A DNA stretch of 64,000 nt from Escherichia coli (GCF_024298765.1 NZ_CP101210.1); one strand, 5' to 3'; counted from the stretch's first letter, positions 3,790 to 27,736 are shown. Numbers and translations are program-made. Notes: generated by a model not told the origin, from the letters alone.

Positions 3790-5346
3790 ATGACAAGTAT
3801 TCAACAACGAGCAGAACTGCACCGCCAGATATGGCAAATTGCCAATGATGTCAGAGGTTCTGTTGACGGATGGGATTTTAAGCAATACGTTCTGGGCGCG
3901 CTTTTCTACCGTTTTATCAGCGAAAATTTTTCCAGCTATATTGAAGCCGGTGATGACAGTATCTGTTATGCGAAACTGGATGACAGCGTAATTACTGATG
4001 ACATTAAAGACGATGCCATCAAAACTAAAGGCTACTTCATCTACCCCAGTCAGCTTTTCTGCAACGTAGCTGCGAAAGCAAATACCAATGACAGACTGAA
4101 TGCAGATTTAAACAGTATCTTCGTTGCTATCGAAAGTTCTGCTTACGGTTACCCTTCAGAAGCTGACATCAAAGGTTTGTTTGCTGATTTCGATACCACC
4201 AGTAACCGCCTGGGTAACACCGTTAAGGATAAAAATGCCCGCCTGGCTGCGGTTCTGAAAGGGGTTGAAGGGTTAAAACTTGGTGACTTCAACGAACATC
4301 AGATTGACCTGTTCGGCGATGCCTATGAGTTCCTGATTTCTAACTATGCGGCGAATGCTGGTAAGTCAGGCGGCGAGTTTTTTACACCGCAGCACGTCTC
4401 CAGGCTGATTGCACAACTGGCTATGCACGGGCAGACCAGCGTTAACAAAATCTACGACCCGGCAGCAGGTTCCGGTTCGCTGTTGTTGCAGGCTAAAAAA
4501 CAGTTTGATGACCATATCATCGAAGAAGGTTTTTTTGGTCAGGAAATCAACCATACGACCTATAACCTGGCGCGTATGAACATGTTTTTGCACAACATCA
4601 ACTACGACAAGTTTGATATCAAGTTGGGCAATACGCTGACTGAGCCGCACTTCAGAGATGAAAAACCGTTTGATGCCATCGTTTCTAACCCGCCGTATTC
4701 GGTGAAATGGATTGGCAGCGATGACCCGACGCTGATTAACGATGAACGTTTTGCCCCGGCTGGCGTCCTGGCCCCCAAATCCAAAGCTGACTTTGCGTTT
4801 GTACTACATGCGCTGAACTATCTTTCGGCCAAAGGTCGTGCTGCGATTGTCTGCTTCCCGGGTATTTTTTACCGTGGCGGCGCAGAGCAGAAAATCCGTC
4901 AATATCTGGTCGACAATAACTATGTCGAAACCGTGATTTCACTGGCACCGAACCTGTTCTTTGGCACCACCATTGCCGTAAACATTCTGGTGCTGTCTAA
5001 ACATAAAACGGATACCAACGTTCAGTTTATTGACGCCAGCGAACTGTTCAAAAAAGAGACTAACAACAATATCCTGACCGATGCCCATATCGAACAGATT
5101 ATGCAGGTATTTGCCAGCAAGGAAGATGTTGCTCATCTGGCAAAATCTGTCGCGTTCGAAGCCGTTGTCGCGAATGACTATAACCTGTCGGTGAGCAGCT
5201 ATGTGGAAGCGAAAGATAACCGCGAAATTATCAATATTGCTGAACTGAATGCAGAGCTGAAAACCACGGTCAGCAAAATCGACCAGTTGCGTAAAGATAT
5301 TGATGCAATTGTGGCTGAAATTGAAGGCTGCGAGGTGCAGAAATGA
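3790..5346 (+). CDS. hsdM: Type I restriction-modification N6-adenine DNA methyltransferase subunit HsdM (type IC-like)
   Basis: 518 aa; SAM-binding motif DPAAGSGS and catalytic motif SNPPYS; stop overlaps the hsdS start (ATGA). Confidence 0.9.
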
Positions 5347-6569
5347 GCGAGTTGACTTATCTGGAAAAATTGCTGGATGGGGTTAAGGTTGAGTGGCAAA
5401 CACTAGGGAAAGTGCTTAAACGAACTAAAGGCACAAAAATAACCGCTGGGCAGATGAAAGCTCTTCACAAAGATAATGCGCCGCTTAAAATTTTTGCAGG
5501 AGGGAAAACAGTAGCCTTTGTTGACTTTAAAGATATACCAGAGAAAGATATTAATAGAGAGCCATCGATTATTGTTAAATCCAGAGGTATTATCGAATTC
5601 GAGTATTACGATAAACCATTCTCTCACAAAAATGAGATGTGGTCATATCACTCAAATAATGATGCGATAAGCATAAAGTATATTTATTACTTCCTAAAAA
5701 TAAATGAAGGATATTTCCAGAAAATTGGGGGTAAAATGCAAATGCCACAAATTGCAACTCCTGATACAGATAAGTTTGAAGTTCCAATCCCCTGCCCGGA
5801 TAATCCGGAAAAATCCCTTGCCATCCAGTCTGAAATCGTTCGGATTCTGGATAAGTTTACTGCACTTACCGCTGAGCTTACCGCTGAGCTTAATATGCGT
5901 AAAAAACAATACAACTACTATCGCGACCAGTTACTGAGTTTTGAGGATGGTGAGGTTGAGTGGAAGGCGTTAGGGACTATATGCCAAATTGGCGATGGCA
6001 ATCACTCATCAAAGTATCCTAAGGCGAATGAAATGATTGAGCAGGGGATACCCTTCATTCGTGGTACCAATATGGTGAATGGTACAATATGCAATCAAGA
6101 TATGAAGTACATATCTAAAGAAAAACACAATGAACTAAAAAAGGGGCATTTAAAAGCATTTGATGTTTTGATAGCTAATAGGGGAGAGGTTGGGAAGGTA
6201 GCATATGTTCCAGAGGGATATTCTGGATCTAATTTAAACTCCCAGTTAGCATGGCTTAGAGCCAACCCGGAAATTATCATTAATAGATATTTATTTTTCA
6301 TTCTTTGCTCATCAACCATACAGAATAAACTTTCTGGTGAAGGAGGGGCATTACAACAACTTACTATCAAGAACATAAAAAACATTCAGATACCTGTTCC
6401 ATCAATAACCGTTCAGAGCAATATCGTATCTTTTTTGGACAAGTTCGACTCGTTAACCAACTCAATCAGTGAAGGCTTGCCACGTGAAATCGAGTTGCGC
6501 CAGAAACAATACGAGTACTATCGTGATTTACTGTTCAGTTTCCCAAAACCTGATACTGTCAGTAATTAA
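5343..6569 (+). CDS. hsdS: Type I restriction-modification specificity subunit HsdS, type IC family, two target-recognition domains
   Basis: 408 aa; central conserved region [27 protein letters not shown] and C-terminal repeat [15 protein letters not shown]; the TAEL tandem repeat is the type IC (EcoR124I-family) hallmark. Confidence 0.85.
5868..5891 (+). repeat. 2 x 12-bp in-frame direct repeat (accgctgagctt) encoding TAEL-TAEL in the HsdS central spacer region
   Basis: Read directly in the sequence; in type IC HsdS the TAEL copy number sets the spacer length of the recognition site (EcoR124I vs EcoR124II). Confidence 0.85.
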
Positions 6570-6690
6570 TTGACCATTGCTACCGACCGGGCCACCTTAA
6601 CACCCGGTCTGTATATAGACTATTTTTTACGCGCCGGAAGTCACTCTTAACGCCCTTCCGGCCCTTGCCAGGCGGCACAAAGGATGCGCT

Positions 6691-9600
6691 ATGACTCATC
6701 AAACACACACCATTGCTGAATCCAATAACTTTATCGTCCTTGATAAGTACATCAAAGCTGAGCAAACAGGCGACAGCTATCAGAGCGAATCGGACCTGGA
6801 ACGGGAACTGATTCAGGACCTGCGAAATCAGGGCTATGAATTTATATCCGTAAAATCTCAGTCAGCGATGCTGGCCAACGTTCGGGAACAGCTTCAGAAC
6901 CTCAATGGTGTGGTGTTTAATGACAGCGAGTGGCGGCGTTTCACGGAGCAGTTTCTGGATAATCCGAGCGATGGCATCCTGGATAAAACCCGTAAAATTC
7001 ATATCGACTACATCTGCGACTTTATTTTTGACGACGGGCGTCTTGAGAACATCTATTTGATAGATAAAAAGAATCTCATGCGCAATAAAGTGCAGATTAT
7101 CCAGCAGTTTGAACAGGCAGGCTCTCATGCTAACCGTTATGACGTCACGATCCTGGTTAATGGTTTACCGCTGGTGCAAATCGAACTAAAAAAACGCGGG
7201 GTGGCGATTCGTGAGGCTTTCAACCAGATACATCGTTACAGTAAAGAGAGTTTTAACAGCGAAAATTCCCTGTTTAAGTATCTGCAACTGTTTGTCATTT
7301 CTAACGGCACCGATACCCGTTACTTTGCCAACACCACAAAGCGCGATAAAAACAGTTTTGACTTCACCATGAACTGGGCGAAATCAGACAACACGCTGAT
7401 TAAAGACCTCAAAGACTTTACCGCTACCTTTTTCCAGAAACATACTCTGCTTAATGTTCTGGTGAACTACAGCGTTTTTGACAGCAGTCAGACGCTACTA
7501 GTGATGCGACCGTACCAGATTGCTGCCACCGAGCGCATTCTGTGGAAAATTAAGAGCTCCTTTACAGCGAAGAACTGGTCAAAACCGGAAAGCGGTGGGT
7601 ATATCTGGCACACTACCGGTTCTGGTAAAACCCTCACCAGCTTTAAAGCCGCGCGTCTGGCAACAGAGCTGGACTTTATTGATAAAGTCTTCTTCGTGGT
7701 CGACAGGAAAGACCTCGATTACCAGACCATGAAGGAATATCAGCGTTTTTCGCCAGACAGCGTCAACGGCTCGGAAAATACCGCAGGCCTTAAACGAAAT
7801 CTGGATAAGGACGATAACAAAATTATCGTCACTACTATTCAGAAACTCAATAACCTGATGAAAGCAGAAAGCGACCTGCCTGTATATAATCAGCAAGTGG
7901 TGTTTATATTTGATGAATGCCACCGCAGCCAGTTTGGAGAAGCGCAGAAAAACCTGAAGAAGAAATTCAAACGCTATTATCAGTTTGGTTTTACCGGCAC
8001 CCCTATTTTCCCGGAAAACGCCTTAGGCTCAGAAACAACCGCCAGCGTATTTGGTCGTGAATTGCATTCGTATGTAATTACCGATGCGATTCGTGACGAA
8101 AAAGTGCTCAAATTCAAGGTGGACTACAACGATGTGCGACCACAGTTTAAGTCTTTAGAGACAGAAACTGACGAGAAAAAACTAAGTGCGGCTGAAAATC
8201 AGCAGGCGTTTCTTCATCCCATGCGTATTCAGGAAATCACGCAATATATTCTGAATAATTTCCGCCAGAAAACCCACCGTACTTTCCCTGGCTCCAAAGG
8301 TTTTAATGCCATGCTGGCAGTAAGCAGCGTGGATGCCGCGAAAGCCTATTACGCGACGTTTAAACGGTTACAAGAGGAAGCCGCTAATAAATCTACTACC
8401 TGTAAACCACTGCGTGTTGCGACAATCTTCTCCTTTGCCGCTAATGAAGAACAAAATGCGATTGGTGAAATATCCGATGAAACTTTTGATACCAGCGCAA
8501 TGGACAGCAGTGCTAAAGAGTTTCTTGACGCTGCAATTCGTGAGTATAACAGCTATTTTAAAACTAACTTCAGCACCGACAGTAAGGGTTTTCAGAACTA
8601 CTATCGTGATTTAGCCCAACGGGTTAAAAATCAGGATATCGATCTGTTAATTGTCGTGGGGATGTTTTTAACCGGTTTCGATGCTCCAACATTGAACACG
8701 CTATTCGTCGATAAAAACTTGCGTTTTCACGGCCTGATGCAGGCATTTTCCCGCACCAACCGTATTTATGATGCAACTAAAACCTTCGGTAATATCGTCA
8801 CTTTCCGCGATCTGGAACGCTCAACCATCGATGCCATAACGCTGTTTGGTGACAAAAACACCAAAAATGTAGTGTTAGAAAAGAGTTATGCAGAGTATAT
8901 GGAAGGCTTTACTGATGCTGCTACTGGTGAAGCTAAGCGCGGCTTTATGGCAGTAGTTGCAGAACTGGAACAACGGTTCCCTGACCCTGCCAGTATTGAA
9001 AGTGAAAAAGAGAAGAAAGACTTCGTTAAACTGTTTGGTGAATACCTGCGTGCCGAGAACATCCTGCAAAACTATGATGAATTTGCCACGCTGAAAGCCC
9101 TGCAACAAATCGATCTTAGCGATCCTGTTGCAGTAGAAAAATTCAAAGCAGAACATTATGTGGATGATGAAAAGCTCGCTGAATTGCAAACAATTCGTCT
9201 CCCTGCTGATCGCAAGATTCAGGATTATCGTTCTGCCTATAACGATATTCGCGACTGGCAGCGCCGTGAGAAAGAAGCTGAGAAAAAAGAGAAATCAACC
9301 ACTGACTGGGATGACGTAGTTTTTGAGGTCGATTTGCTGAAATCTCAGGAAATAAACCTGGATTATATCCTTGGTCTGATTTTCGAGCACAACAGACAAA
9401 ACAAAGGTAAGAGCGAAATGATCGAAGAGGTCAAACGCTTAATTCGTTCAAGCCTGGGGAACCGTGCTAAAGAGGGCCTGGTGGTCGATTTTATTCAGCA
9501 AACGAACCTGGATGATTTACCGGACAAAGCCAGCATCATTGACGCATTCTTTACGTTTGCTCAACGCGAACAGCAACGTGAAGCAGAAGCCTTGATCAAA

Positions 9601-9807
9601 GAAGAAAATCTCAATGAAGAGGCGGCGAAACGCTATATTCGCACATCTTTAAAACGCGAATACGCCACCGAAAATGGCACGGAATTAAACGAGACACTGC
9701 CCAGACTCAGTCCTTTAAATCCGCAATATAAAACGAAAAAACAGACTGTTTTTCAAAAAATTAGCGCATTTATTGAAAAATTTAAGGGGGTGGGTGGAAA
9801 GATTTAG
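6691..9807 (+). CDS. hsdR: Type I restriction endonuclease subunit HsdR (SF2 helicase/nuclease)
   Basis: 1038 aa; helicase motifs TGSGKT and DECHRSQ; RBS aaagga before the ATG; gene order M-S-R as in type IC systems. The TAG stop sits directly against the IS5 end. Confidence 0.9.
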
Positions 9808-11003
<1,196 letters not shown>

Positions 11004-11598
11004 CAAGAGAACGCAACAGCGCACTTGCTTTGCCACAGTTGAATTTTGTGCCGTAACGATGTGCAAGCATGTAAGCATAAGGAGTCAAGGTATAGCGTGT
11101 TACTTAGTTACTCGGATTAACAATCCCAACGTACAGAGCGGCGGATTTACAGAGTCAGCGCAGTCCCTGCTCCGGCAGTCAGTGGCAGGCGGCGTACTGA
11201 AGCAAACCATTATCGATACCGGCATCGGCGATACCATCGGCATGCTGATGTCACACGGCAATATTTCTCCCTACATCATGGCGTGGTTGATAACCGTGCT
11301 GATCCGTCTGGCAACGGGTCAGGGCGTGGTCTCAGCCATGACGGCGGCGGGGATTATTAGCGCAGCAATCCTCGACCCGGCAACCGGTCAACTGGTGGGC
11401 GTCGACCCGGCGTTGCTGGTGCTGGCAACAGCGGCTGGCTCCAACACGCTGACCCATATCAACGATGCTTCGTTCTGGCTGTTCAAAGGCTACTTTGATC
11501 TGTCGGTGAAGGATACGCTGAAAACCTGGGGTCTGCTGGAGCTGGTAAACTCCGTGGTTGGCCTGATAATCGTGTTGATCATCAGCATGATTGCATAA
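11004..11598 (+). pseudogene. C-terminal fragment of a GntP-family (gluconate/H+ symporter-like) permease, 5'-truncated at the IS5 boundary
   Basis: Open frame from the IS5 end to the stop at 11598; C-terminal hydrophobic segments ([35 protein letters not shown]...[17 protein letters not shown]) typical of GntP-family transporters; no start codon or N-terminal half. Confidence 0.55.
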
Positions 11599-11605
11599 CG
11601 TTGAT

Positions 11606-11638
11606 ACCGCTCTGGCCCACAGCGCCAGAGCGGTTTTC
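11606..11638. terminator. Hairpin terminator between the convergent GntP-fragment and ykgG (stem accgctctggc / gccagagcggt, then TTTT)
   Basis: 11-bp perfect inverted repeat with a 7-nt loop followed by a T-run on the + strand, in the 49-bp gap between convergent stop codons. Confidence 0.5.
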
Positions 11639-11647
11639 CATCCTGCC

Positions 11648-12343
11648 TCAACAATCCTCAATAATCAGATATACCGCCTTCACCGGACCATGCACCCCAA
11701 CCACCTTGATAAGCTCAATATCCGCCGTCGAGCTGGGTCCACTGATGATATTAATGCACGATGGCATACGCTCACCGGCCTGTGCTTTCTGATGCAGTTT
11801 TTCTGCCAGCTGCGCCACGCGCGGCAGGATGGTGCTTTTACGCAGCACGAAAATAGAGGACTCCGGCAACAGGCTCAGGGAGCGCCCGCGCTCCGGTGCG
11901 GAAAACAGCACCACGCCGCCGGACTCGGTCAGGCCATATTCGGCATACACCACGCCGACTTTCGCCTGCTCGGCCTGGGTAATATTTTCGCTACCACGCG
12001 CCGGATCCCAGACCACGGCGTTGCATTCCTGCTGCAAGCGTTCGGTGATGCCCAGCTCCACCAGCCGGCTGTCGCCGCTCAGCACCACCGGCTGCTGACC
12101 CAATTCTTCGCACAGGCGCAGTGCCGCGTCTGCGGCCTGGTCCTCGCTGGTCAGTTCGCAGCGGGCCAGCATCACTTCGCTGGCAAACTGGATAAACGCA
12201 GAGCAGCGCTGCTCGGGGCTAAGCTCGGTCAGGCGCTCGTTGGCATAGTTGTTAACCGGTGCGGCATCCGCTTGCGGTTCGAAGCGCAGCGGGCGACCCA
12301 GCGCCTGGGCGATGGTGTTTAAAAACGCGGTACGGTTATCCAT
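11648..12343 (-). CDS. ykgG: Lactate utilisation protein C (LutC/YkgG)
   Basis: Start at the internal Met MDNRTAFLNTIAQALGRP (231 aa), overlapping the ykgF stop by 8 bp; the longer ORF-track start at 12490 is rejected. Confidence 0.8.
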   Translation of the reverse strand: MDNRTAFLNTIAQALGRPLRFEPQADAAPVNNYANERLTELSPEQRCSAFIQFASEVMLARCELTSEDQAADAALRLCEELGQQPVVLSGDSRLVELGITERLQQECNAVVWDPARGSENITQAEQAKVGVVYAEYGLTESGGVVLFSAPERGRSLSLLPESSIFVLRKSTILPRVAQLAEKLHQKAQAGERMPSCINIISGPSSTADIELIKVVGVHGPVKAVYLIIEDC

Positions 12344-13763
12344 TCTTTTTCTCCTGCGCCTGATGTTTCTTAAACCAGCTGCGGAAGCTCTCGCCGTCAG
12401 CATCAGGCAGATCGCGCGCCTCCATCCAGTCACCAATCGCGCCAACCTTGAGCGGGGTTTTGCCGCCATTGAGAAACCAGCTCGCCGCATGCGCGCCCGC
12501 CATCATCCCGACTTTCCACAGCCCCGGATGGCTATTGGCATAGGCGAACATCTTGATCGCCCGTCGCTCGGCTTTCGGCGTAATGCCCTCCTCGGCCATC
12601 ACCCGGCGATGACGCAGGATCAGTTTTGACAACGGAATACGCACCGGGCAGACGCTGTCACAAGCCGTGCACAAAGAACAGGCGTACGGCAGGTCTTTAA
12701 AATCTTTATAGCCGCCGAGCAGCGGAGAAATCACCGCGCCGATAGGGCCGGGATAGATAGAGCCATAGCCGTGCCCGCCGATGTGGCGGTACGCCGGACA
12801 GGTGTTCATACAGGCTCCGCAGCGGATGCAGCGCAGCACATCGCGAAACTCTGAGCCCAGCACCTGCGAGCGACCGTTATCGACAATCACCAGATGGAAC
12901 TCTTCCGGTCCGTCAACGTTGTCCGCCTCACGCGGGCCGGTCAGCCAGGTGTTGTAGCCCGTCAGACGTGCGCCCACGGCGCTGCGCGCCAGCATGGTAA
13001 TCAGCACATCCACCTCGGCAAAGGTCGGCGCGATACGCTCCATGCCCATCACCGCAATGTGCGTTTTCGGTAGCGTGGTGCACATGCGCGCGTTGCCTTC
13101 GTTGGTCACCAGACACACCGAGCCGGTTTCCGCCACGGCAAAGTTACAGCCAGTAATACCGATTTCGGCACTGAGGAAATCCTCGCGGATCTTCTGACGA
13201 ATGAACAAGGTCATAGCTTCCGGGGTTTCCGGGCCGTCGTACCCCAGACGTTCGTTCAGCACGCGGCGGATCTGGTAGCGATCTTTATGAATCGCCGGAA
13301 CCACGACGTGCGAAGGCGGATCCTGATCCAACTGCAGGATATATTCCCCGAGATCGGTTTCGATCACCTGGATTCCGGCATCCTGCAACACATGGTTGAC
13401 GCCGATTTCTTCGGTCACCATCGACTTGGACTTCACCACCTTCTGCGCATTTTTACTCTGCGCGACCTGCAAAATGTAGCGAGTGGCATCTTCTTTGGTT
13501 TTGGCGAAATAGACGTGTCCGCCGTTTTCCGTCACTTTCTCGGAGAGTTGGTACAGGTAAGTGTCGAGGTTGCTCAGAACGTGATCGCGGATCTGGCTGG
13601 CACGATCGCGCCATTCTTCCCAGTGGCCTAACTCATCGACCATTTTTTGCCGATTCGCGCCGATACGCTCCTGCGCATTAGCCACGGCTTTGCGCATAAT
13701 CGGATCTTCTATCTGCTGACGAATACGCAGTTTAAATTCTACATCGCTGGTTTTTATCGACAT
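12336..13763 (-). CDS. ykgF: Lactate utilisation iron-sulfur protein B (LutB/YkgF)
   Basis: 475 aa; two 4Fe-4S ferredoxin-type Cys clusters (CIRCGACMNTCP and CSLCTACDSVCP). Confidence 0.85.
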   Translation of the reverse strand: MSIKTSDVEFKLRIRQQIEDPIMRKAVANAQERIGANRQKMVDELGHWEEWRDRASQIRDHVLSNLDTYLYQLSEKVTENGGHVYFAKTKEDATRYILQVAQSKNAQKVVKSKSMVTEEIGVNHVLQDAGIQVIETDLGEYILQLDQDPPSHVVVPAIHKDRYQIRRVLNERLGYDGPETPEAMTLFIRQKIREDFLSAEIGITGCNFAVAETGSVCLVTNEGNARMCTTLPKTHIAVMGMERIAPTFAEVDVLITMLARSAVGARLTGYNTWLTGPREADNVDGPEEFHLVIVDNGRSQVLGSEFRDVLRCIRCGACMNTCPAYRHIGGHGYGSIYPGPIGAVISPLLGGYKDFKDLPYACSLCTACDSVCPVRIPLSKLILRHRRVMAEEGITPKAERRAIKMFAYANSHPGLWKVGMMAGAHAASWFLNGGKTPLKVGAIGDWMEARDLPDADGESFRSWFKKHQAQEKKNG

Positions 13764-13773
13764 CTCTTTCCCC

Positions 13774-14493
13774 TCAGCGGCTCATCAGCACTTCAGCAAT
13801 ATGCATCACTTTGACCGGCTGGCCTTCCCGTTGCAGTCGACCGCCAATGTTCAGCAGGCAGCTAACGTCTGCGCCAATCAAAAATTCCGGCTTTGCGTCC
13901 ATCAGATGTAATACTTTCTCTTTCACCATCTCACCGGATATCTCGGCCATCTTGACCGAGAACGTCCCGCCAAAGCCGCAACAGGTATCCTGATCGGCAA
14001 ACGTCAACAGCTCCAGTCCGCGCACGTTTTTCAGCAGCGTAAGCGGCTCTTCCTTCACTCCCAGTTTGCGGGTCAGGCTACAGGAAGGATGATACACAGC
14101 GCGGCCCTGCAGGCTGGCACCAACGTCCACCACACCCAGTTTGTTGACGATAAAGGAGGTGAGATCCTGCATACGCGCGGAAACTTTCTCAGCACGCAGC
14201 GCCCATTCCGGTTCATCGGCCAGATACGTCGGGTAGCTTTTAACCGCGTAGGTGCAGGAGCCCGCCGGGGAGATAATCGGATCGTCGTTGTCTTCCAGCG
14301 CGGCGATCAGGTTTTTCATCCCGGGGATCGCCTCTTTGATGTAACCGCTGTTGATGGCTGGCTGACCGCAACACCCTTGCTTCTCGGGGAAATTAACGCG
14401 ACAACCCAGTTTTTCCAGCAGCAATACGGAGTCTCGTGCCATCCGTGATTTCAGTGCGTCACCAATACAGGTGACAAAGAAATTTACATTCAC
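13774..14493 (-). CDS. ykgE: Lactate utilisation protein A (LutA/YkgE), Cys-rich CCG-domain oxidoreductase subunit
   Basis: 239 aa MNVNFFVTCIGDAL...; Cys-rich motifs (CCGQP, CCGFGG). Confidence 0.85.
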   Translation of the reverse strand: MNVNFFVTCIGDALKSRMARDSVLLLEKLGCRVNFPEKQGCCGQPAINSGYIKEAIPGMKNLIAALEDNDDPIISPAGSCTYAVKSYPTYLADEPEWALRAEKVSARMQDLTSFIVNKLGVVDVGASLQGRAVYHPSCSLTRKLGVKEEPLTLLKNVRGLELLTFADQDTCCGFGGTFSVKMAEISGEMVKEKVLHLMDAKPEFLIGADVSCLLNIGGRLQREGQPVKVMHIAEVLMSR

Positions 14494-14567
14494 AATAACT
14501 ACTCCATTGCTTCATTTCTGTTTATTGCGCTTGATATCGCGATATCAAACAAATGTTCATTCGTATT

Positions 14568-16265
14568 TCATGCCCAGTTTTTATGTTTGCTGGTTTTACC
14601 AATACCTGGATTCATAGTGTTGGTCGGATCATTTTCCTGATAAAAACGTGCCAAATTTTCCTGCGCTTTATACAGATGGCCGACATTGTGTTCCGCCGGA
14701 TATTGCGCTCCGCGTTGGCGCAGTAATTCCAGCATCTGTTCTTTTAACGCGTGGGCATCTACGCCTTTTTTAACGATATAATCCTGATGGAATACATGGC
14801 ACATAAAATGGCCGTAATAGAGTTTATGCACCAACTGACTGTCAATTTCCGCCGGTAAATGCTCATACCATTCGGTATCATTGCGGCGTAATGCAATATC
14901 CAGCGCGAGAATATCCTCAACCTCGTCAGAATGAACGGCCTGATAACGAATGGCAGCACCCGCGGCGGCAAAACGATGCAGAAACGCCTTACTGCCCTCT
15001 TCCGCGGTACAGGTAAAGAACGCGCCCTCGGCCGATTTAAAATAGTCCGTTAACCATGCCTGGGCTTCGGCCACACCCTCACCGGACATTTTCAACATCA
15101 GATGGTGTTCATAGTTATCGCGCCAGGTCTTCATCCGCGCCGGGAGATGGCTCGGGAACAGATGGCTAAAAGCCTGCATCGCGCGGTCGGTAAAGTGCGG
15201 GCGAAAGATCTTCACCTTCTCAAGTATGGCCTCGGTACGCCCCTTCAGGTTGAAGAAGAACGGCATTTTGTCCGTGCCAAGTTTGTCGATCATCAGGAAG
15301 GTATCTTTGCTGTATTTCTCTGCAATATCATAGATATCGCGGTGCATATACTCCCCAGCAACCGGCAGGTTTGTAAAATTCGCCAGGATGTGGCGGCGAA
15401 TCTCAGTCAGGACATCAGTCTGATTGGTACCGATATAAAAGACCTGCTGGTTCTTCTCGGCTTCAAAGGTATCCAGACGTACGGCAAACACCGCTAACTT
15501 GCCCGCACAGCCAGAGGATTCAAACAGGCGATCCGGGTCAGCGTTGTAACGTGCTGGCGTGTCGGCATTGATGTCCCGCACGCGGCTAACATAGTCGTGA
15601 TCGTGCGCGTGACGCCCGTCATGGTTGACGAGCACGGCTTCAATCGCATTGTTATCCAGCCGGGCAAGGATTTGCTCTGGCGTCTGACCTAGCTCAATGC
15701 CGAGGTGATTGACCAGCTGCAAGCGTCCCTGTTCATCAATACGGGCAAACAGCGACATCTCGGTATAAGCCGGGCCACGCTGGACCAGAGAACCGCCGGA
15801 GTTATTACAGATACCGCCGATAACCGACGCGCCGATGCACGAAGAGCCAATCACCGAATGCGGCTCACGGCCAAACGGCTTCAGCGCCTTTTCCAGCGAA
15901 TACAGCGTGGTGCCCGGATAAGCCAGCACCTGCTTACCCTCATCCAGCACATGCAGACTGTCCAGCCGCAGCGTGCTGATAATGACGATCTCGCGGTCGT
16001 AATCATTACCATTGGGCGTCGAACCCTCAGTCAGGCCAGTGTTCGACGCCTGCATCAGGATTATTTTATCGGCCTCAACGCAGGCGCTAAGGACTTTCCA
16101 GAGTTCAAGCAAAGAGCCGGGGATAACCACCGCCAGAGCATCACCCTGACCCGAGCGAAAACCCTTACGGTAACGCGCAGTTTTTGACGGTTCGGTGAGG
16201 ATATGAGCAGGGCCAACCAATTGGGTAAGAGTTGTCAAAAAGGTCTTATTATCAGTATGTTTCAT
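14568..16265 (-). CDS. dld: FAD-dependent, quinone-linked D-lactate dehydrogenase (Dld family)
   Basis: ORF 14568..16313; preferred start at MKHTDNKTFL (16265) with ggag about 10 nt upstream; FAD-binding signature GSSCIGASVIGGICNNSGGS; ~565 aa, full length for Dld. Confidence 0.7.
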   Translation of the reverse strand: MKHTDNKTFLTTLTQLVGPAHILTEPSKTARYRKGFRSGQGDALAVVIPGSLLELWKVLSACVEADKIILMQASNTGLTEGSTPNGNDYDREIVIISTLRLDSLHVLDEGKQVLAYPGTTLYSLEKALKPFGREPHSVIGSSCIGASVIGGICNNSGGSLVQRGPAYTEMSLFARIDEQGRLQLVNHLGIELGQTPEQILARLDNNAIEAVLVNHDGRHAHDHDYVSRVRDINADTPARYNADPDRLFESSGCAGKLAVFAVRLDTFEAEKNQQVFYIGTNQTDVLTEIRRHILANFTNLPVAGEYMHRDIYDIAEKYSKDTFLMIDKLGTDKMPFFFNLKGRTEAILEKVKIFRPHFTDRAMQAFSHLFPSHLPARMKTWRDNYEHHLMLKMSGEGVAEAQAWLTDYFKSAEGAFFTCTAEEGSKAFLHRFAAAGAAIRYQAVHSDEVEDILALDIALRRNDTEWYEHLPAEIDSQLVHKLYYGHFMCHVFHQDYIVKKGVDAHALKEQMLELLRQRGAQYPAEHNVGHLYKAQENLARFYQENDPTNTMNPGIGKTSKHKNWA

Positions 16266-16700
16266 GGAGGGCGGCTCTCCGCTCCTTATATCAGGGCCAG
16301 TGAAAATGGCCATAAGTTCATTTGTACGACAAAACAGAATATTCCCTCAATCAATATCCACATGCAATACCCCATTTTATTTCTTTCGGCACCGCTCACA
16401 TTTTTTAATGAAATTACCACTACCACATAATTCATACTCCGTTCTTTTACTGGATGCCAAAACGCTTATTTCATTTATTGCAAAGACCATTTCATACCTA
16501 TTAATGATTAACTCTAATGGGTATTATTATATTTAGTGGTTATTCATATTTAATAAAAAAATAACATTATTTATACAATTATTAACCTTTGTAACTTTAT
16601 TTCACTGAAGCGATTCAGTTTGCATTTTTTATTTTATTATTAAGGTAGCCTCCTTCCCCCTAAATATAGTTAAGTCTAAAAAAGTAAATCGGGAATTGTA

Positions 16701-18254
16701 ATGCACGAATATTTAATGTTTGCTCTGGCACTCTCTCCTTTGCTGCTGATGGTATTTTTAATACTGAAATTAAAAATGCCCATCCATTATTCCGTACTGA
16801 TCTCTTTGGTATTCACCGCTGCACTATCGGCAATATTCTGGGAAATGCCCACACAGAATCTGAAAGCCGCGATAGGCTATGGTGCACTGAAGGGACTATG
16901 GCCGATCGTAATTGTTATCCTCGGCGCTATCTTCAGTTATAACGTCATGCAGGCGACCAAAGCGCTGGATATTCTGCGCGATATTCTCGCCAGCATTAGC
17001 GAAGATAAGCGTATTCAGGTGCTGCTGATTTCATGGTGTTTTGGTGGATTTCTTGAAGCCGCTGCGGGCTATGGCACGGCGGTCGCTATTCCGATCGGTA
17101 TTCTCATTGCGCTGGGATTCAACCCGTTGAAGGCGGCGATTGCTTCCCTCGTAGCAAATACCGTTCCGACCGCATTTGGCGCGGTTGGAATCCCGGTTTC
17201 TATTCTGGCAGAGCAGGTTAATCTGCCGGTTTATACCTTAGGCGGAACCATTATTTTGCAGCTCGCGCTGTTTAATATCCTGCTGCCGTTTGTGATTGTC
17301 TGCATTATTGGCGGTGGCCTGAAAGCCATTCGCGGCGTATTTCTGATCACGTTGATTTGCGGCATTTCCACGCTGGTTCCGCAATATTTTGTCGCCATCC
17401 ATCTTGGCGCGGAATTACCCGCCTTTGCCGGTAGCCTGGTCAGCCTGTTTGCCGTGGCGATGGTCAGTCGCCTGCGCAAAGGGAAAACCGATCCCGAGTG
17501 GCGCATTGAGGTCAGCCATACCCGCGAAACCACGCCGCGCTCGGCAAAAGTGTTGTTCCGGGTTGGCTCTATTTATCTGTTTATTTTTGTGTTTATCCTG
17601 CTGTGTTCGCCGCTGTTCCCGACAATAAAAGGCGCGGCATCCCAACTGGCTTCGGTGCTGCATTTCACGTTGGCTGACGGCAAAACGATGGCGCTGAAAG
17701 TTGAATGGGCGACCACACCGGGGATGCTGATCATCTTTGCGACCATTATCGGCGGTTTTATTCAGGGAGCGTCCGCACGTGGGATGCTGGAAGTATTTAT
17801 CAAAACGATTTTCCAGCTTAAAAACTCTATCGTCGCAATTATGGCGATCGTCGCGCTGGCCACGGTGATGGATCTCAGCGGGATTATCTCCACGCTGGCC
17901 CAGTCGATTGTCGATCTGACCGGCAGCTCGTACGTCTTCCTCGCCCCGGTGATTGGCGCGCTGGGCACGTTCGTGACCGGCAGCGATACCAACTCGAACA
18001 TTCTGTTCGGCAAGCTGCAAACCATTGCCGCCAGCAAGTTACATATCGATCCTAACTGGCTGGCGGCGGCCAATACCTCTGGCGCTACGGGGGGGAAAAT
18101 GATTTCGCCGCAAAGCATCGCCATCGCAGTTTCTGCCACCAAAATGGACGGTCAGGCCAACCAGATTATGTCTGGCACCATGAAATACTGCTGCGCCTAC
18201 ATTGTGATCCTCGGCCTGAAAGTCGGTCTGTTTTATTACTGGTTTATGGCGTAA
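16701..18254 (+). CDS. Lactate permease family (LctP) transporter, a paralog distinct from LldP
   Basis: 517 aa multi-pass membrane protein with the LctP signature GSDTNSN; divergently oriented from dld across an AT-rich intergenic region. Confidence 0.8.
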   Translation: MHEYLMFALALSPLLLMVFLILKLKMPIHYSVLISLVFTAALSAIFWEMPTQNLKAAIGYGALKGLWPIVIVILGAIFSYNVMQATKALDILRDILASISEDKRIQVLLISWCFGGFLEAAAGYGTAVAIPIGILIALGFNPLKAAIASLVANTVPTAFGAVGIPVSILAEQVNLPVYTLGGTIILQLALFNILLPFVIVCIIGGGLKAIRGVFLITLICGISTLVPQYFVAIHLGAELPAFAGSLVSLFAVAMVSRLRKGKTDPEWRIEVSHTRETTPRSAKVLFRVGSIYLFIFVFILLCSPLFPTIKGAASQLASVLHFTLADGKTMALKVEWATTPGMLIIFATIIGGFIQGASARGMLEVFIKTIFQLKNSIVAIMAIVALATVMDLSGIISTLAQSIVDLTGSSYVFLAPVIGALGTFVTGSDTNSNILFGKLQTIAASKLHIDPNWLAAANTSGATGGKMISPQSIAIAVSATKMDGQANQIMSGTMKYCCAYIVILGLKVGLFYYWFMA

Positions 18255-18511
18255 ACCATTGTCAACCCCGTCAAATTCGCGGCAATCGAATTTGACGACA
18301 TAGTGACCAAAAAGGTTTACACCGCCCCGGGAACGGAACGAGGCAACAGACTTTACGATTTGTCGGCGCTGACTAAAATAGCGCCGATGTTTCAAATCGA
18401 GGATTGTTGTTATGTTGTTCTGGAAAAAGATGGTGAAGAAGTTCGACGCCTTTTCCGGTGATGCTGCCAACTTACTGATTTAGTGTATGATGGTGTTTTT
18501 GAGGTGCTCCA

Positions 18512-18787
18512 GTGGCTTCTGTTTCTATCAGCTGTCCCTCCTGTTCAGCTACTGACGGGGTGGTGCGTAACGGCAAAAGCACCGCCGGACATCAGCGCTA
18601 TCTCTGCTCTCACTGCCGTAAAACATGGCAACTGCAGTTCACTTACACCGCTTCTCAACCCGGTACGCACCAGAAAATCATTGATATGGCCATGAATGGC
18701 GTTGGATGCCGGGCAACCGCCCGCATTATGGGCGTTGGCCTCAACACGATTTTACGTCACTTAAAAAACTCAGGCCGCAGTCGGTAA
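18512..18787 (+). CDS. insA: IS1 InsA (DNA-binding protein / transposition inhibitor)
   Basis: 91 aa with zinc-finger CPSC...CSHC; classic IS1 InsA. Confidence 0.9.
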
Positions 18788-19209
18788 CCTCGCGCATACA
18801 GCCGGGCAGTGACGTCATCGTCTGCGCGGAAATGGACGAACAGTGGGGCTATGTCGGGGCTAAATCGCGCCAGCGCTGGCTGTTTTACGCGTATGACAGG
18901 CTCCGGAAGACGGTTGTTGCGCACGTATTCGGTGAACGCACTATGGCGACGCTGGGGCGTCTTATGAGCCTGCTGTCACCCTTTGACGTGGTGATATGGA
19001 TGACGGATGGCTGGCCGCTGTATGAATCCCGCCTGAAGGGAAAGCTGCACGTAATCAGCAAGCGATATACGCAGCGAATTGAGCGGCATAACCTGAATCT
19101 GAGGCAGCACCTGGCACGGCTGGGACGGAAGTCGCTGTCGTTCTCAAAATCGGTGGAGCTGCATGACAAAGTCATCGGGCATTATCTGAACATAAAACAC
19201 TATCAATAA
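18706..19209 (+). CDS. insB: IS1 InsB (transposase catalytic part, expressed as InsAB' by -1 frameshift)
   Basis: 167-aa ORF overlapping the insA 3' end in the -1 frame. Confidence 0.85.
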
Positions 19210-19688
19210 GTTGGAGTCATTACCAATGGTGGTAACCGTATAGTCCCAAATAAAGATAAAAATGCTTCATTCTTACTCACCATTCCATTTGCTAAGTCTG
19301 TTATTGATGAAATATTGAGTAAAGAAAATCTGTCATGGTGCTCGAAAAATACTTTGCCAATATTGCATGCTTTTAGTATTAGAGCTTTAACCTCCTAATT
19401 GCTGAAGTAATGATACAAGCTACAGTATTGGTGACGAATCTATAGACAAGGAGATAAAAACCAAATATCAGAATTATTTTTGATAGTGCTGGTAAAGAAG
19501 CGGTGTTTGATATCAGCATGTTTATCGGAAAAAAGCTTACCTGGAGCTTTGAAAAATTGCAAAGCAGGGCCTGACAATGAAGGCCCTAATACTGTACTGA
19601 ATGTTAACTCAGTACCAAATTACAAGGAAAAGTATTTTTTCTGGTAAGATTCTGTATACATAATAAATCACCTTATAGTTACAATAGG

Positions 19689-20170
19689 TCAAAAACCGCT
19701 GTAGCCAAAGTTACGCTGGCCTGATGCTTTAGTGTCGAGCTTCGTCAAATAATCCAGACGTACCAATAAGCGCTGGTACTGCTCTGGGAAATCAGGCTCG
19801 TTAATATCCAGGATGTAACGTCCATTAGCAGGGAAATGAACTAATCCCTGGTGATCTTCCAGTTCCAACCCTAAGGCACTGTACCAGGCTCCGGTAATTA
19901 ACCCTCTCAGTGTGTCAGAGCGCTCATAGTTTCCCAGGTGGTAATAGGCGTCTTTGTTAAAAAAAGGCAGACGTGATAATGACATTTAAAGGACTGCGTA
20001 TATTCTTTCGCCCAGATAATACAAACCGCCGTTGCGTAGGTGCGTTTGCCTTGTTGTTTTTTACTGTGTTGATCTGCATTAATTTTCGCATTCAGCGAGT
20101 TACGGAAACGAGATATCTCTCCGGGGATCAGGTTAGGGAAACAGGTAATGATATCCCCGTTGTCAATCAC
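19689..20170 (-). pseudogene. Hypothetical gene, apparently frameshifted (two overlapping minus-strand ORFs 20170->19907 and 19985->19689)
   Basis: Two same-strand ORFs overlap in different frames between IS1 copy 1 and IS2; no family recognised. Could be unrelated spurious ORFs. Confidence 0.25.
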
Positions 20171-20260
20171 AGGAGGGTAATGGAGATCCCCCCGTATTGC
20201 TGTTATTCTGGAAGTGTTTTTAATATTCGTATTGATAGTTCTCAGAGATTGGATTTGCCC

Positions 20261-21166
20261 CTATATTTCCAGACACCTGTTATCACTTAACCCATTACTG
20301 GCCCGCTGCCGTAGATATTCCCGTGGCGAGCGATAACCCAGTGCACTATGCGGGTGCCATTCGTTATAATGCTCGAACGCCTCTGCAAGGTTCTTTGCTG
20401 CCGTTAACCCGTCTGGTTTAGGCATGATACTGATGTAGTCACGCTTTATCGTTTTCACGAAGCTCTCTGCTATGCCGTTACTCTCCGGACTCTGCACCGC
20501 CGTGTTCTTCGGTTCAAGCCCTAATATCCGGGCAAACTGCCGTGTTTCATTAGCCCGGTAGCATGAACCATTATCCGTCAGCCACTCTACTGGAGACGCC
20601 GGAAGCTCGTTGCCGAAGCGGCGTTCCACCGCTCCTGGCATGACGTCCTGTACTGTTTCACTGTCGAAGCCGCCCGTAGTGACTGCCCAGTGCAGTGCCT
20701 CACGGTCACAGCAGTCCAGCGCGAACGTGACTCGCAGTTTTTCTCCGTTATCACAGCGGAACTCGAACCCGTCAGAGCACCATCGTTGATTGCTTTCTTT
20801 CACGGCCACTTTGCCAGTATGTGCCCGTTTCGATGGCGGTACAGCGGTTTTTCGCTCAAGCAACAGCGCATTCTGGCGCATGATCCGGTAAACACGTTTG
20901 GCATTGATCGCAGGCATACCATCAAGTTCGGCCTGTCTGCGAAGCAGCGCCCATACCCGACGATAACCATACGTGGGCAGCTCTCCGATAACATGGTGTA
21001 TACGGAGAAGCACATCCGTATCATCTGAGTGACGGCTGCGGCGACCATCTTTCCAGTCATCGGTTCGTCTGAGAATTACGTGCAACTGCGCACGCGACAC
21101 CCGGAGACAACGGCTGACTAAGCTTACTCCCCATCCCCGGGCAATAAGGGCGCGTGCGCTATCCAC
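20261..21166 (-). CDS. insD: IS2 transposase OrfB (InsD)
   Basis: 301 aa with DDE-transposase C-terminus ...[18 protein letters not shown]. Confidence 0.9.
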
Positions 21167-21489
21167 TTTTTTGCACGCCCGTATTCAACGGCTTCTTTAA
21201 GGAGTTCATTTTCCATCGTTTTTTTGCCGAGCAGGCGCTGGAGTTCTTTAATCTGCTTTATGGCAGCAGCAAGTTCAGAGGCAGGAACGATCTGTTCTCC
21301 TGCGGCCACAGCAGTAAGACTTCCCTCCTGGTATTGCTTGCGCCAGAGAAATAACTGGCTGGCTGCCACACCGTGTTGCCGGGCAACAAGGGAGACCGTC
21401 ATTCCCGGTTCAAAGCTCTGCTGAACAATAGCGATCTTTTCCTGTGTAGTACGCCGTCTGCGTTTCTCCGGTCCTAAGACATCAATCAT
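21124..21489 (-). CDS. insC: IS2 OrfA (InsC), HTH protein
   Basis: Start at [26 protein letters not shown] within ORF 21124..21534. Confidence 0.85.
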
Positions 21490-21533
21490 CTGCTCTCCAA
21501 TGACTAGTCTAAAAACTAGTATTAAGACTATCA

Positions 21534-23450
<1,917 letters not shown>

Positions 23451-23463
23451 TACCGCAGGAGGC

Positions 23464-24918
23464 ATGATGGAGAGCATTAATAATCAAGTGCAGTCGGTAC
23501 GCCAGTTGCTGGCCATTCCCCAACTGGCCATCCCAAGCTATCAGCGACCTTACCGCTGGGGCTCCAAGAATATCTCGGATCTCTTTACCGATTTGGCAAC
23601 CCATCAGGACAAGAGCGCCTACCGGCTGGGCTCGGTGGTGTTTCATCAGCACACCGATAGTGAGCAGGGCGAAATGCTTGATATCGTCGATGGTCAGCAA
23701 CGCACCCTGACCCTGATGTTGACCGTCAAGGCGCTGATCGAGGTGCTGGATAACGAAAATCGCAGTGGCAAAGAGAAGAGTATCCGGTTTCAACGTCAGG
23801 ATCTGCGTGAGCAATTGCAGGTCTTGCGTGGACCTATCGATGCGTTTATGCAGCGCCAGCGCTTCCCCAGCCGGGATTCGGAGTTCAACCTCAGACGTAA
23901 CTATCTGGAGTTGCGTCGGCTGGTGGCCCGCCCTGAGTTTGACGAGCAGCAAATTGACTTTCTGCTCAACCGCTGTCAGGTGGTCTGCTTTGTACTGCAG
24001 GATATCTCGGAGGCGTTCCAGTTCTTCGATTCGCAAAATGCCCGGGGGCGCGATCTGGCTCCTCACGATCTGCTCAAGGCATTTCACCTGCGCGAGTTTG
24101 CCGGTCATGAGGCCAATCTCAAGGCCGAGGCGGTCGCCCATTGGGAGCGCCTGCCAAGCGACGAGCTGGCCAATCTGTTCGCCCTCTATCTCTATCGGGT
24201 ACGCCAGTGGGCCGAGGGCAAGTCGGCCCGCTACTTTGGCAAGGGGGAGGTGGATCTCTTCAAGGGGGTCAACCTAGATCGGGTAGGGCATTATCCTTAC
24301 GTGGAGTCGCTGCGCATCGCCCACCACTTTGTCGATGAGTACAACAGCCAGTACCAGCGCAAGATTGACGGCCAGTACATGACGTTTCCCTTTCATCTCG
24401 ACCAGATGATCATCAATGGTCGGCGCTTTTTCGAGATGGCCGAGTACTACCAGACGCGGGTGGCCGCCATCGTGGCCGAGGAGTCTGATTCCGGCAAGGC
24501 GCAATCTGCCACCCTGCTCGGCGAAACGCTGACACCGATGGCCAGCAAGGTGCTATCGACCCTGGGCAGCTACGAGCGTCGCCACCGCACCGGGGATCGT
24601 TATGTGCGGGCCATGTTCGACTGCGCCCTGATCTTCTATATCGACAAGTTCGGCAGCCAAGGGCTGTCACTGGCCATCGAGAAGTGCTTTATCTGGGCCT
24701 ATCGCTGCCGCATCCGCCAGCAGGTAGTGCAGTTGGCAACCATGGATAACTATGTGCTGGAGCACAATCTGATCCGTGCCATTCGTGATGCTCGTCTGCC
24801 GGGAGATCTGCACGGCTTCCCTTTGCCTAGCATGAGCAGTCGAGAGAACAAGAACAATCGCAATGGTGCCGAAGATGAGCTGGTCGGGCTGTTTCGGGAG
24901 ATGAAATATTATGAATGA
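23464..24918 (+). CDS. DUF262 (ParB/Srx-like NTPase fold) protein; candidate defence component, GmrS-like
   Basis: 484 aa; DUF262 signature [10 protein letters not shown] ... [13 protein letters not shown] and [18 protein letters not shown]; RBS aggagg before the ATG; 3' end overlaps the next gene by 8 bp. Confidence 0.75.
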
Positions 24919-26953: not shown

Positions 26954-27023
26954 CGGATTGAATCTGTTGGTGATGCTGCCAACTTACTGATTTAGTGTAT
27001 GATGGTGTTTTTGAGGTGCTCCA

Positions 27024-27299
27024 GTGGCTTCTGTTTCTATCAGCTGTCCCTCCTGTTCAGCTACTGACGGGGTGGTGCGTAACGGCAAAAGCACTGCCGG
27101 ACATCAGCGCTATCTCTGCTCTCATTGCCGTAAAACATGGCAACTACAGTTCACTTACACCGCCTCTCAGCCCGGTACGCACCAGAAAATCATTGATATG
27201 GCCATGAATGGCGTTGGATGCCGGGCAACCGCCCGCATTATGGGCGTTGGCCTCAACACGATTTTCCGCCATTTAAAAAACTCAGGCCGCAGTCGGTAA
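27024..27299 (+). CDS. insA: IS1 InsA
   Basis: 91-aa ORF, one substitution (L to F) relative to copy 1. Confidence 0.9.
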
Positions 27300-27721
27300 C
27301 CTCGCGCATACAGCCGGGCAGTGACGTCATCGTCTGCGCTGAAATGGACGAACAGTGGGGCTACGTAGGTGCTAAATCACGTCAGCGCTGGCTGTTTTAC
27401 GCGTATGACAGGATACGGAGGACGGTTGTGGCGCACGTCTTCGGTGAACGCACTCTGGCCACACTGGAGCGTCTTCTGAGCCTGCTGTCGGCCTTTGAGG
27501 TCGTGGTATGGATGACGGATGGCTGGCCGCTTTATGAATCACGCCTGAAGGGAGAACTGCACGTTATCAGCAAGCGATTTACGCAGCGCATTGAGCAGCA
27601 TAACCTGAATCTGAGGCAGCATCTGGCAAGGCTGGGCAGGAAGTCACTGTCGTTCTCAAAATCGGTGGAGCTGCATGACAAAGTCATCGGGCATTATCTG
27701 AACATAAAACACTATCAGTAA
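27218..27721 (+). CDS. insB: IS1 InsB
   Basis: 167-aa ORF overlapping insA. Confidence 0.85.
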
Positions 27722-27736
27722 GTTGGAGTCATTACC

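Follow-up and report, generated by a model that had tools for sequence, protein, structure and literature searches.

Why should an Escherichia coli strain carry, in its accessory DNA, a set of lactate-utilisation genes that is on paper redundant with the lldPRD-type, dld and ykgEFG functions its host possesses anyway, and where did this set come from? The question is raised by a locus in the genome of E. coli 2020CK-00188, which we analysed within a stretch of 64,000 nucleotides (the window, from whose first letter all positions are counted). A sequence-only reading had delimited a lactate cluster at 11004 and 18456, the first base past an ISKpn26 element and the last base ahead of an IS1 element, respectively. 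Based on the evidence presented here, we consider it likely that this region is a horizontally acquired, self-contained module for lactate respiration. The module as such is already known, from plasmid pFec10 (Kamal et al. 2020); what is new in this work is its origin, its distribution and its predicted regulation.

From 11185 to 18456, the window contains a 3' fragment of gntP, then the minus-strand genes lutC-lutB-lutA and dld, and finally a divergently oriented lctP, so that every gene of the set previously named (lutABC, dld and lctP) lies where it had been placed. The genes lutA (13774-14493, minus strand, 239 aa), lutB (12336-13763, minus strand, 475 aa) and lutC (11648-12343, minus strand, 231 aa) are adjacent, share one strand and follow the A-B-C order, with an 8-nt overlap between lutB and lutC. 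They are of the ykgE, ykgF and ykgG type, and their products are 94.6%, 94.5% and 85.7% identical to K-12 YkgE, YkgF and YkgG. LutA has two CCG cysteine-rich domains (PF02754 matched in two stretches, 113 bits), LutC has a LUD domain (PF02589), and LutB, the iron-sulfur subunit, combines LUD (PF02589), 4Fe-4S dicluster (PF13183) and LutB_C (PF11870) domains and reaches equivalog level (758 bits against the TIGR00273 cut-off of 444.8). The dld gene (14568-16265, minus strand, 565 aa), which may be co-transcribed with lutABC, encodes an FAD-dependent respiratory D-lactate dehydrogenase with FAD_binding_4 (PF01565) and Lact-deh-memb (PF09330) domains along its full length. Its earlier description as a divergent dld-like gene was correct as to its presence and overstated in its wording, given an identity of 86.3% to K-12 Dld and an equivalog-level score (1047 bits against a cut-off of 391 for NF008387). 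The RefSeq annotation starts this gene at an upstream ATG (16313), giving 581 aa; this codon is confined to the present variant class and takes the place of an ATA in the plasmid copy.

The fifth gene, lctP (16701-18254, plus strand, 517 aa), encodes an LctP-family lactate permease (TIGR00795, 403 bits against a cut-off of 341; PF02652 covered over positions 3-519 of 522). It is only 32% identical to K-12 LldP, and its assignment as an LldP or GlcA equivalog was rejected (257 bits against cut-offs of 918 and 1121, respectively). Additionally, two terminator-like hairpins, each a perfect 11-bp inverted repeat, would close the transcription units: one at 11606-11634, between the convergent gntP fragment and lutC, and the other at 18269-18297, directly 3' of lctP.

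It could be argued that this is simply the core lactate locus of E. coli (the orthologous ykgEFG and its neighbours), with K-12 as the exception, as the ykgE and ykgF labels given to the module genes in some RefSeq records and the 94-95% protein identity to YkgE and YkgF might suggest. Nevertheless, the same genome retains the core ykgEFG intact at a distance of about 44 kb, at its usual position between rclR and betA, to which the module lutABC is only about 83% identical at the nucleotide level. The genome also has dld in two places; the module dld is about 77% identical in nucleotide sequence to the core dld, which is present in 5423 of 5426 E. coli genomes and whose presence here answers the question, left by the earlier reading, of whether the module gene is the sole ortholog. 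The whole module occurs in just 105 of the 5426 complete E. coli genomes (1.9%), and it lies inside a genomic island at the tRNA-Thr gene thrW (42301-42376), among IS elements, rather than at the core position from rclR to ykgH/betA. Taken together, these observations leave the core-locus explanation a practically negligible probability. The synteny comparison thus bears out the proposal of one accessory catabolic unit that is not contiguous in K-12, where its counterparts occupy three separate loci, and that lies within mosaic DNA instead of clean core sequence. The cluster supposed to have arisen by joining ykgEFG to new neighbours does exist; its lutABC, however, is a second, foreign copy and not ykgEFG.

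The edges of the module record how it was assembled. On the left, ISKpn26 (IS5 family; 9808-11003, minus strand, 1196 bp, according to the RefSeq annotation) contains a transposase ORF at 9955-10935 (NF033581, 367 bits), is delimited by the terminal repeats GGAAGGTGCGAATAAG and CTTGTTCGCACCTTCC, and is flanked by TTAG and CAAG, with no 4-bp target duplication. A 181-bp spacer (11004-11184) separates the end of this element from the Citrobacter-derived DNA; it is present in the E. coli chromosomal copies of 13P460A, G3/10 and SW07164, and matched neither the Citrobacter loci nor the Klebsiella plasmid compared. The gluconate permease fragment follows (11185-11598, plus strand, 137 codons), matching positions 310-446 of the 447 in NF007459 and positions 310-440 of PF02447; in the homologous locus of C. 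portucalensis L008, gntP is full length (447 aa, at 5181-6524). The sequence-only reading was therefore right about a permease fragment and wrong about a direct cut by IS5, as 181 bp of unrelated DNA intervene: the truncation of gntP predates the adjacent IS5 element and is independent of it. On the right, the claim of a small ORF cut by IS1 held: a putative 25-codon ORF starting at 18412 (18412-18456, plus strand) is truncated after codon 15, and intact copies, as in SW07164 and C. portucalensis, read MLFWKKMVKKFDAFSALIPPRYFRV, a sequence conserved in Citrobacter. The IS1 itself (IS1A-like; 18457-19224, plus strand, 768 bp, NF033558) is flanked by gccttttcc and aatggtggt, again with no target duplication.

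Since neither ISKpn26 nor IS1 has a target-site duplication, both mark rearrangement joints and not simple insertions. An arrangement of this kind might also be produced by a composite transposon moving ISKpn26, module and IS1 as one unit, and in G3/10 the homology with the window does begin 5 bp outside ISKpn26 and stop at the outer edge of IS1, with both outer flanks differing. Such a transposon would need two copies of the same IS and a target duplication; here the bracketing elements belong to different families (IS5 on the left, IS1 on the right) and no duplication surrounds either IS or the whole block. In addition, the IS1 junction is common to only 44 genomes, against 86 for the ISKpn26 junction, and other copies of the module terminate in an IS3 remnant. 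Recombination between dispersed IS copies fits the pattern equally well, and we regard transposition of the block as improbable.

The DNA between these joints points to Citrobacter. Homology to Citrobacter starts at window position 11185, the module coding DNA is 96-98% identical to that of C. portucalensis, and LctP is 97-99% identical to its counterparts in C. portucalensis, C. youngae and C. braakii; longer copies of the module additionally carry REP-like sequences 3' of lctP. Judged from these identities, the module DNA derives from a chromosome of the Citrobacter freundii complex. Among the retrieved Citrobacter species representatives, none combines an intact dld with an identity of at least 97%, which traces the donor no further than the complex: in those of the C. 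freundii complex, a deletion scar stands in place of dld, and C. gillenii keeps dld, but is only about 83-88% identical. Outside the E. coli chromosome, the whole module is found on 142 plasmids, chiefly from Klebsiella and Raoultella, and in one K. pneumoniae IncFIB/IncFII plasmid examined closely it sits between the ars and pco operons. In the route that we propose, a segment that starts midway through gntP and stops some 450 bp beyond lctP would have been excised from a C. freundii-complex chromosome, spread via large plasmids of Klebsiella, Raoultella and E. coli, and then entered E. coli chromosomal islands. The pairing of permease and L-lactate complex appears to be much older: in each of the 41 loci from Enterobacterales and Sutterella that extend far enough to reveal it, lctP adjoins lutABC, which is the pattern of an ancient functional link.

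All five genes of the module are under purifying selection, with pN/pS values of 0.02-0.07 relative to the plasmid copy and zero stop codons, and the five ORFs are intact in all copies examined. Much of this divergence may predate the transfer, having arisen in Citrobacter, and for that reason the signal of selection is no proof of a benefit in E. coli.

How the module could be expressed in a new host is suggested by its operators. A predicted operator of the YieP type (GntR/FadR family) at 16319-16333, 54-68 nt upstream of the dld start, reads ATTTGTACGACAAAA and fits 13 of the 15 positions of the published YieP motif atTTGTaTGAcaAAT, one of the mismatches replacing a high-information T by C; in the copies from plasmids and Citrobacter, this box reads TTGTATGACAA. 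YieP represses ykgEFG about 10-fold (PMC7642389), and a YieP-type box is also found upstream of ykgE in K-12 and in the core locus of the present host, as well as in all Citrobacter loci; YieP is a candidate regulator at the module site. Upstream of lctP (16605-16618, 83-96 nt before its start) lies a predicted operator of the Cra type, the palindrome CTGAAGCGATTCAG, which fits 13 of the 14 positions of the published Cra (FruR) motif ctgaAtCGaTtcag (bioRxiv 10.1101/080929) and is the sole exact copy of this sequence within the window. Of 43 Enterobacterales loci, 27 keep a Cra-type box at -88 to -115 relative to lctP, and Cra may bind here. A promoter scan yielded no enrichment. The module contains no regulator gene and, together with the YieP-type and Cra-type boxes, this suggests that its expression is probably controlled by the resident regulators of the host.

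The resulting mechanism can be outlined as follows. LctP would bring lactate into the cell, where Dld, a membrane-associated flavoenzyme, would convert D-lactate to pyruvate and the LutABC iron-sulfur complex would do the same with L-lactate, the electrons then passing to the respiratory chain; this second copy would operate beside the host ykgEFG, dld and lldPRD, bracketed by ISKpn26 and IS1. The enzymatic activities are predicted from the 86-95% identity that the proteins share with characterised ones of E. coli, that of LutABC from its identity to YkgEFG, which competition assays identify as a respiratory L-lactate dehydrogenase working with nitrate, whereas Dld acts on D-lactate (PMC9701030). 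The true substrates might instead be other short hydroxy-acids, such as 3-hydroxypropionate or glycolate: the YieP regulon, including ykgEFG, was found via 3-hydroxypropionate tolerance, the ligand of YieP is not known (PMC7642389), and the glycolate permease GlcA belongs to the LctP family. This is very unlikely in view of the same competition assays, of the equivalog-level match of the module Dld to D-lactate dehydrogenase, and of the fact that the tolerance was due to yohJK and not to ykgEFG deletion (PMC7642389).

Lactate being the expected substrate, the module may confer a fitness benefit or may be redundant cargo, hitch-hiking on islands and metal-resistance plasmids with no selectable advantage to E. 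coli. The latter would agree with the presence of lactate genes in the host, the low prevalence (1.9%), the lack of a regulator of its own, the finding that dld and ykgEFG mutants of E. coli have no fitness defect in mouse colitis models (PMC9701030), and the remark of Kamal et al. that what drove the gain of the second copy is yet to be determined (PMC7984374). Against this, the five ORFs have stayed intact with low pN/pS between chromosomal and plasmid copies, the predicted operators are conserved, and E. coli otherwise lacks a close counterpart of LctP, so that the transporter at least is new to the host. On balance, we find the cargo explanation doubtful, and keep that of a self-contained lactate-respiration module.

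A more specific possibility, which we put forward only tentatively, is that the module is a plug-in unit run by the host YieP and Cra, providing a transporter and a coupled capacity to oxidise D- plus L-lactate independently of the oxygen- and LldR-controlled lldPRD; as both regulators are conserved across Enterobacterales and the module has predicted operators for them, a dedicated regulator gene would be superfluous. If so, it could promote growth in an inflamed gut that is rich in lactate and contains nitrate, and could account for its upkeep on Klebsiella plasmids (one of them, read closely, pairing it with arsenic- and copper-resistance operons) and in E. coli islands; moreover, YieP may have lactate or a related acid as its signal. 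Since Enterobacteriaceae expand in the inflamed gut with the support of host-derived lactate (PMC9701030), a mobile transporter with second D- and L-lactate dehydrogenases is a plausible colonisation factor, and what had been a second copy of unclear purpose is now open to deletion and reporter experiments.

The module is thus of foreign descent, has few carriers in E. coli, retains all its genes intact and probably answers to regulators of the host; it is not a new kind of system. Its closest relative is the lactate-utilisation cluster of plasmid pFec10 from E. coli Fec10, described and noted as a second copy by Kamal et al. (2020, Mol Microbiol, PMC7984374): as far as can be judged from the description in that paper and from our plasmid search, both have an LctP with no equivalent in K-12, a Dld that shares over 85% identity with its chromosomal counterpart, and a ykgEFG set whose YkgE is 94% identical, but the present module is chromosomal, lies in a thrW island and has ISKpn26 and IS1 junctions. 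The core ykgEFG, dld and lldPRD of E. coli share with it the enzyme families, the domain architectures and an upstream YieP-type box, yet are spread over three loci in K-12 instead of forming one 7-kb unit, and the module, whose LctP belongs to another LctP subfamily (32% to LldP), has neither LldD nor LldR. The gntP-lutCBA-(dld)-lctP loci of the C. freundii complex agree with it in gene order, orientation and predicted operators (and, in C. portucalensis, are 96-98% identical in coding DNA), and differ in the loss of dld with a scar, seen in the species representatives, and in their full-length gntP. More distantly, the lctP-lutABC operons of Proteus, Edwardsiella, Pectobacterium and Kosakonia likewise link the permease to the L-lactate complex, but consist of four co-directional genes with no dld. 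The link between a permease and the three-subunit complex also appears in the lutABC/lutP or lldP-dld-lldEFG clusters of Bacillus subtilis, Shewanella oneidensis and Helicobacter pylori, Shewanella using a different D-lactate enzyme (Dld-II) and Bacillus having its own regulator, LutR.

The stretch between window positions 11004 and 18456 carries a lactate-utilisation module that is a second copy, distinct from the core locus of the same genome. The ORF listing, the NCBIfam and Pfam scans and the RefSeq annotation are concordant on its content: a 3' fragment of gntP (11185-11598, plus strand, profile positions 310-446 of 447); on the minus strand, lutC (11648-12343, 231 aa, with a LUD domain), lutB (12336-13763, 475 aa, TIGR00273 at 758 bits against a cut-off of 444.8), lutA (13774-14493, 239 aa, with two CCG domains) and dld (14568-16265, 565 aa, NF008387 at 1047 bits against a cut-off of 391); and the divergent permease gene lctP (16701-18254, plus strand, 517 aa, TIGR00795 at 403 bits against a cut-off of 341). 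The three lut genes, dld and lctP are all full length and contain no internal stop codons. The RefSeq annotation of dld in E. coli 2020CK-00188 is 581 aa long, because an ATA-to-ATG change creates an extra in-frame start at 16313, upstream of the conserved one (16265). A 143-aa ORF on the minus strand (18039-18470) was discarded as spurious, since it matches no family and overlaps the 3' part of lctP on the opposite strand.

E. coli 2020CK-00188 (human rectal swab, USA) matches the window at 100%. In this genome the core ykgE, ykgF and ykgG (the E. coli names for the core lutABC) are intact in their usual place between rclR and betA, approximately 44 kb outside the left edge of the window, so that the sequence-only reading, which had taken the module lutABC to be ykgEFG itself with new neighbours, has to be corrected. 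The same reading had proposed a check for a canonical dld elsewhere, and a second dld place was indeed found. Across 5426 complete E. coli genomes, the module lutABC is approximately 83% identical in nucleotide sequence to the core ykgEFG, and the module dld approximately 77% identical to the core dld, which is present in 5423 of these genomes. At the protein level, identities to K-12 are 94.6% (LutA), 94.5% (LutB), 85.7% (LutC) and 86.3% (Dld), while LctP and K-12 LldP share 32%. As the sequence-only reading had supposed, the genes are not contiguous in K-12, where the lactate functions occupy three separate loci. In some genomes with a single place, such as strain G3/10, the module is apparently the sole lutABC; there, mmuPM is directly followed by tauA, and the K-12 stretch holding the core ykgEFG is missing.

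When a whole module is defined as a match to at least 80% of the query, 105 of the 5426 genomes carry it, and the synteny comparison thus places the arrangement in the accessory genome. The whole module is also found on 142 plasmids; plasmid records with any match (n=206) are mostly from Klebsiella (124), Escherichia (58) and Raoultella (11). In the one plasmid read in detail, p69-1 (Klebsiella pneumoniae, IncFIB/IncFII), the module has the ars operon on one side and the pco operon on the other, with an IS3-family element marking its end, and an IS3-remnant end as on plasmids is seen in SW07164 and other E. coli carriers. The ISKpn26 junction occurs in 86 E. coli carriers and the IS1 junction in 44. 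G3/10 has the same ISKpn26-to-IS1 block as the window, with both outer flanks different.

The limits of the region, as first drawn, coincide exactly with the inner edges of ISKpn26 (IS5 family; 9808-11003, 1196 bp) and IS1 (18457-19224, 768 bp). The ends of neither element show a target-site duplication: no 4-bp duplication flanks ISKpn26 (TTAG vs CAAG), and none was found at IS1, whose flanks also differ. ISKpn26 starts right after the stop codon of hsdR, and the type I restriction-modification system hsdM, hsdS and hsdR is complete at 3790-9807, with hsdR intact despite the insertion sequence. Contrary to the sequence-only reading, the IS5-family element does not interrupt the gntP fragment, since 181 bp of unrelated DNA (11004-11184) intervene and the Citrobacter homology begins at 11185. 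A search of all retrieved loci matched this spacer only to identical E. coli copies, apart from one weak 49-bp match near an inovirus Gp2-type gene of another strain. At the other border, IS1 has taken away the last ~246 bp (C. portucalensis coordinates) of the Citrobacter-derived segment. The small ORF said to be cut by IS1 proved to be a putative 25-codon ORF, MLFWKKMVKKFDAFSALIPPRYFRV, which starts at 18412 and is truncated by IS1 in the window (18412-18456); it is intact in SW07164 (19404-19481 of that locus) and in C. portucalensis (11712-11789). This ORF, downstream of lctP and with a Shine-Dalgarno-like sequence, is conserved in the mobile module and Citrobacter, and REP-like sequences come after it in longer module copies.

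The surrounding island extends from tRNA-Thr (42301-42376) leftwards beyond the window start, up to an integrase. A near-identical island in E. coli 13P460A is missing the ~10.3 kb right after the first IS1 (window 19225-29508), which hold a second IS1 (26969-27738; 94% identical, same orientation), a frameshifted Gp2-type gene, an IS3 element, a methylase fragment, two DUF262 proteins and stbA. In that strain a single IS1 abuts the large ATPase gene, in a copy shortened at its 5' end and annotated as a helicase, and the absence looks like an IS1-mediated deletion. A gene pair at 29174-33534, encoding a 979-aa AAA ATPase and a 481-aa tetratricopeptide-repeat protein, is possibly a defence system.

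When LctP was searched against a single genome for each prokaryotic species, its nearest relatives fell in the Citrobacter freundii complex (97-99% amino-acid identity). The homologous chromosomal stretch of C. portucalensis contains a complete 447-aa gntP followed by lutC, lutB, lutA and lctP, and its coding DNA is 96-98% identical to that of the window. In the species representatives of the complex (L008-L013, L017, L028 and L032 among the comparison loci), dld is absent between lutA and lctP, and what is left of it is a deletion scar: the last ~70 nt of the gene and its upstream region are kept (locus ~9420-9640, compared with window 14494-14640 and 16266-16340), so that lutABC now follows what used to be the dld promoter and YieP box. 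C. gillenii retains dld at the same place, with 92% amino-acid identity. Together, the scar and the C. gillenii gene argue, by sequence comparison, that the mobile module descends from a Citrobacter lineage still holding dld; among the species representatives, no donor combining an intact dld with at least 97% identity was found. Elsewhere in the Enterobacterales, as in Sutterella, the gene for this LctP subfamily belongs to a co-directional operon, lctP-lutA-lutB-lutC, that has no dld; therefore, the link between permease and LutABC is old and the dld insertion is, among the sampled genomes, Citrobacter-specific.

The window and the copy on the Klebsiella plasmid were compared gene by gene, leaving out rows for loci without the gene in question, and each of the five genes gives a pN/pS of 0.02-0.07. 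These values reflect constraint on all five, and some of the divergence may be older than the transfer. Compared with SW07164, the window shows essentially no differences between 11004 and ~15500, including the lut half, and 94-99% identity from there to 18456, where the 1-6% differences fall in the 5' part of dld, the intergenic region and lctP. This break near 15500 indicates a mosaic module, with recombination between module variants.

The module contains no regulator gene, and from predicted operators we infer that it would be controlled by YieP and Cra. YieP (GntR/FadR family) recognises the motif atTTGTaTGAcaAAT, and deletion of yieP derepresses ykgEFG ~10-fold (PMC7642389). A YieP-type operator is predicted upstream of dld (16319-16333, ATTTGTACGACAAAA). 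The consensus box TTGTATGACAA lies upstream of ykgE in K-12 and 2020CK-00188, and is also present in SW07164, the Klebsiella plasmid copy and all Citrobacter loci; K-12 dld has a weaker version upstream. In the window and G3/10 the box reads TTGTACGACAA; here C replaces T at a high-information position, which might weaken dld-lutABC repression in this variant class. Upstream of lctP, a predicted Cra-type palindrome (16605-16618, CTGAAGCGATTCAG) agrees with the published Cra motif at 13 of 14 positions. Allowing at most two mismatches, 27 of 43 loci, from several enterobacterial families, have a Cra-pattern site upstream of lctP at a distance of 88-115 nt; the background rate of these loci would predict ~0.7. 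The palindrome is kept at a fixed distance in Enterobacteriaceae, Pectobacteriaceae, Erwiniaceae and Hafniaceae (comparison loci L008-L034, L037 and L072), and was not found upstream of lctP in Proteus, Budvicia and Sutterella. We found no mention of lldP, dld or ykgE in the Cra motif paper (bioRxiv 10.1101/080929).

A promoter and terminator scan of 11000-18460 showed no excess of predictions over shuffled sequence. No terminator-like signal lies in the 74-bp gap between dld and lutA, and the dld upstream region directly precedes lutA in dld-less Citrobacter, which suggests that dld-lutABC form one operon. Terminator-like hairpins follow lutC/gntP' and lctP. A perfect 18-bp palindrome inside the gap (14524-14541, TTGATATCGCGATATCAA) is shared with C. 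portucalensis; it was rejected as a terminator, having no T-run and being absent from C. gillenii and upstream of K-12 ykgE.

On the basis of competition assays, D-lactate has been assigned to E. coli Dld, and L-lactate to YkgEFG as a respiratory dehydrogenase working with nitrate (PMC9701030). Since the module enzymes are 86-95% identical to the E. coli proteins, they most likely have the same roles, for which LctP would supply lactate uptake. In mouse colitis models, dld and ykgEFG mutants showed no fitness defect (PMC9701030), and a benefit of the extra copy is therefore not established.

The sequence alone had correctly pointed to an accessory lactate-utilisation unit, a gene set already described by Kamal et al. 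2020 on the E. coli plasmid pFec10 (PMC7984374). Our analysis adds the proof that it is a second copy in 2020CK-00188, figures for its prevalence, exact IS junctions, an origin in Citrobacter (where the C. freundii complex bears a dld deletion scar), and the predicted YieP and Cra operators. Literature searches found no functional study of the plasmid-borne cluster, Klebsiella included, and Kamal et al. 2020 (PMC7984374) called the reason for gaining a second ykgEFG undetermined. By that paper's description, the pFec10 cluster has the same identity values as the module studied here.
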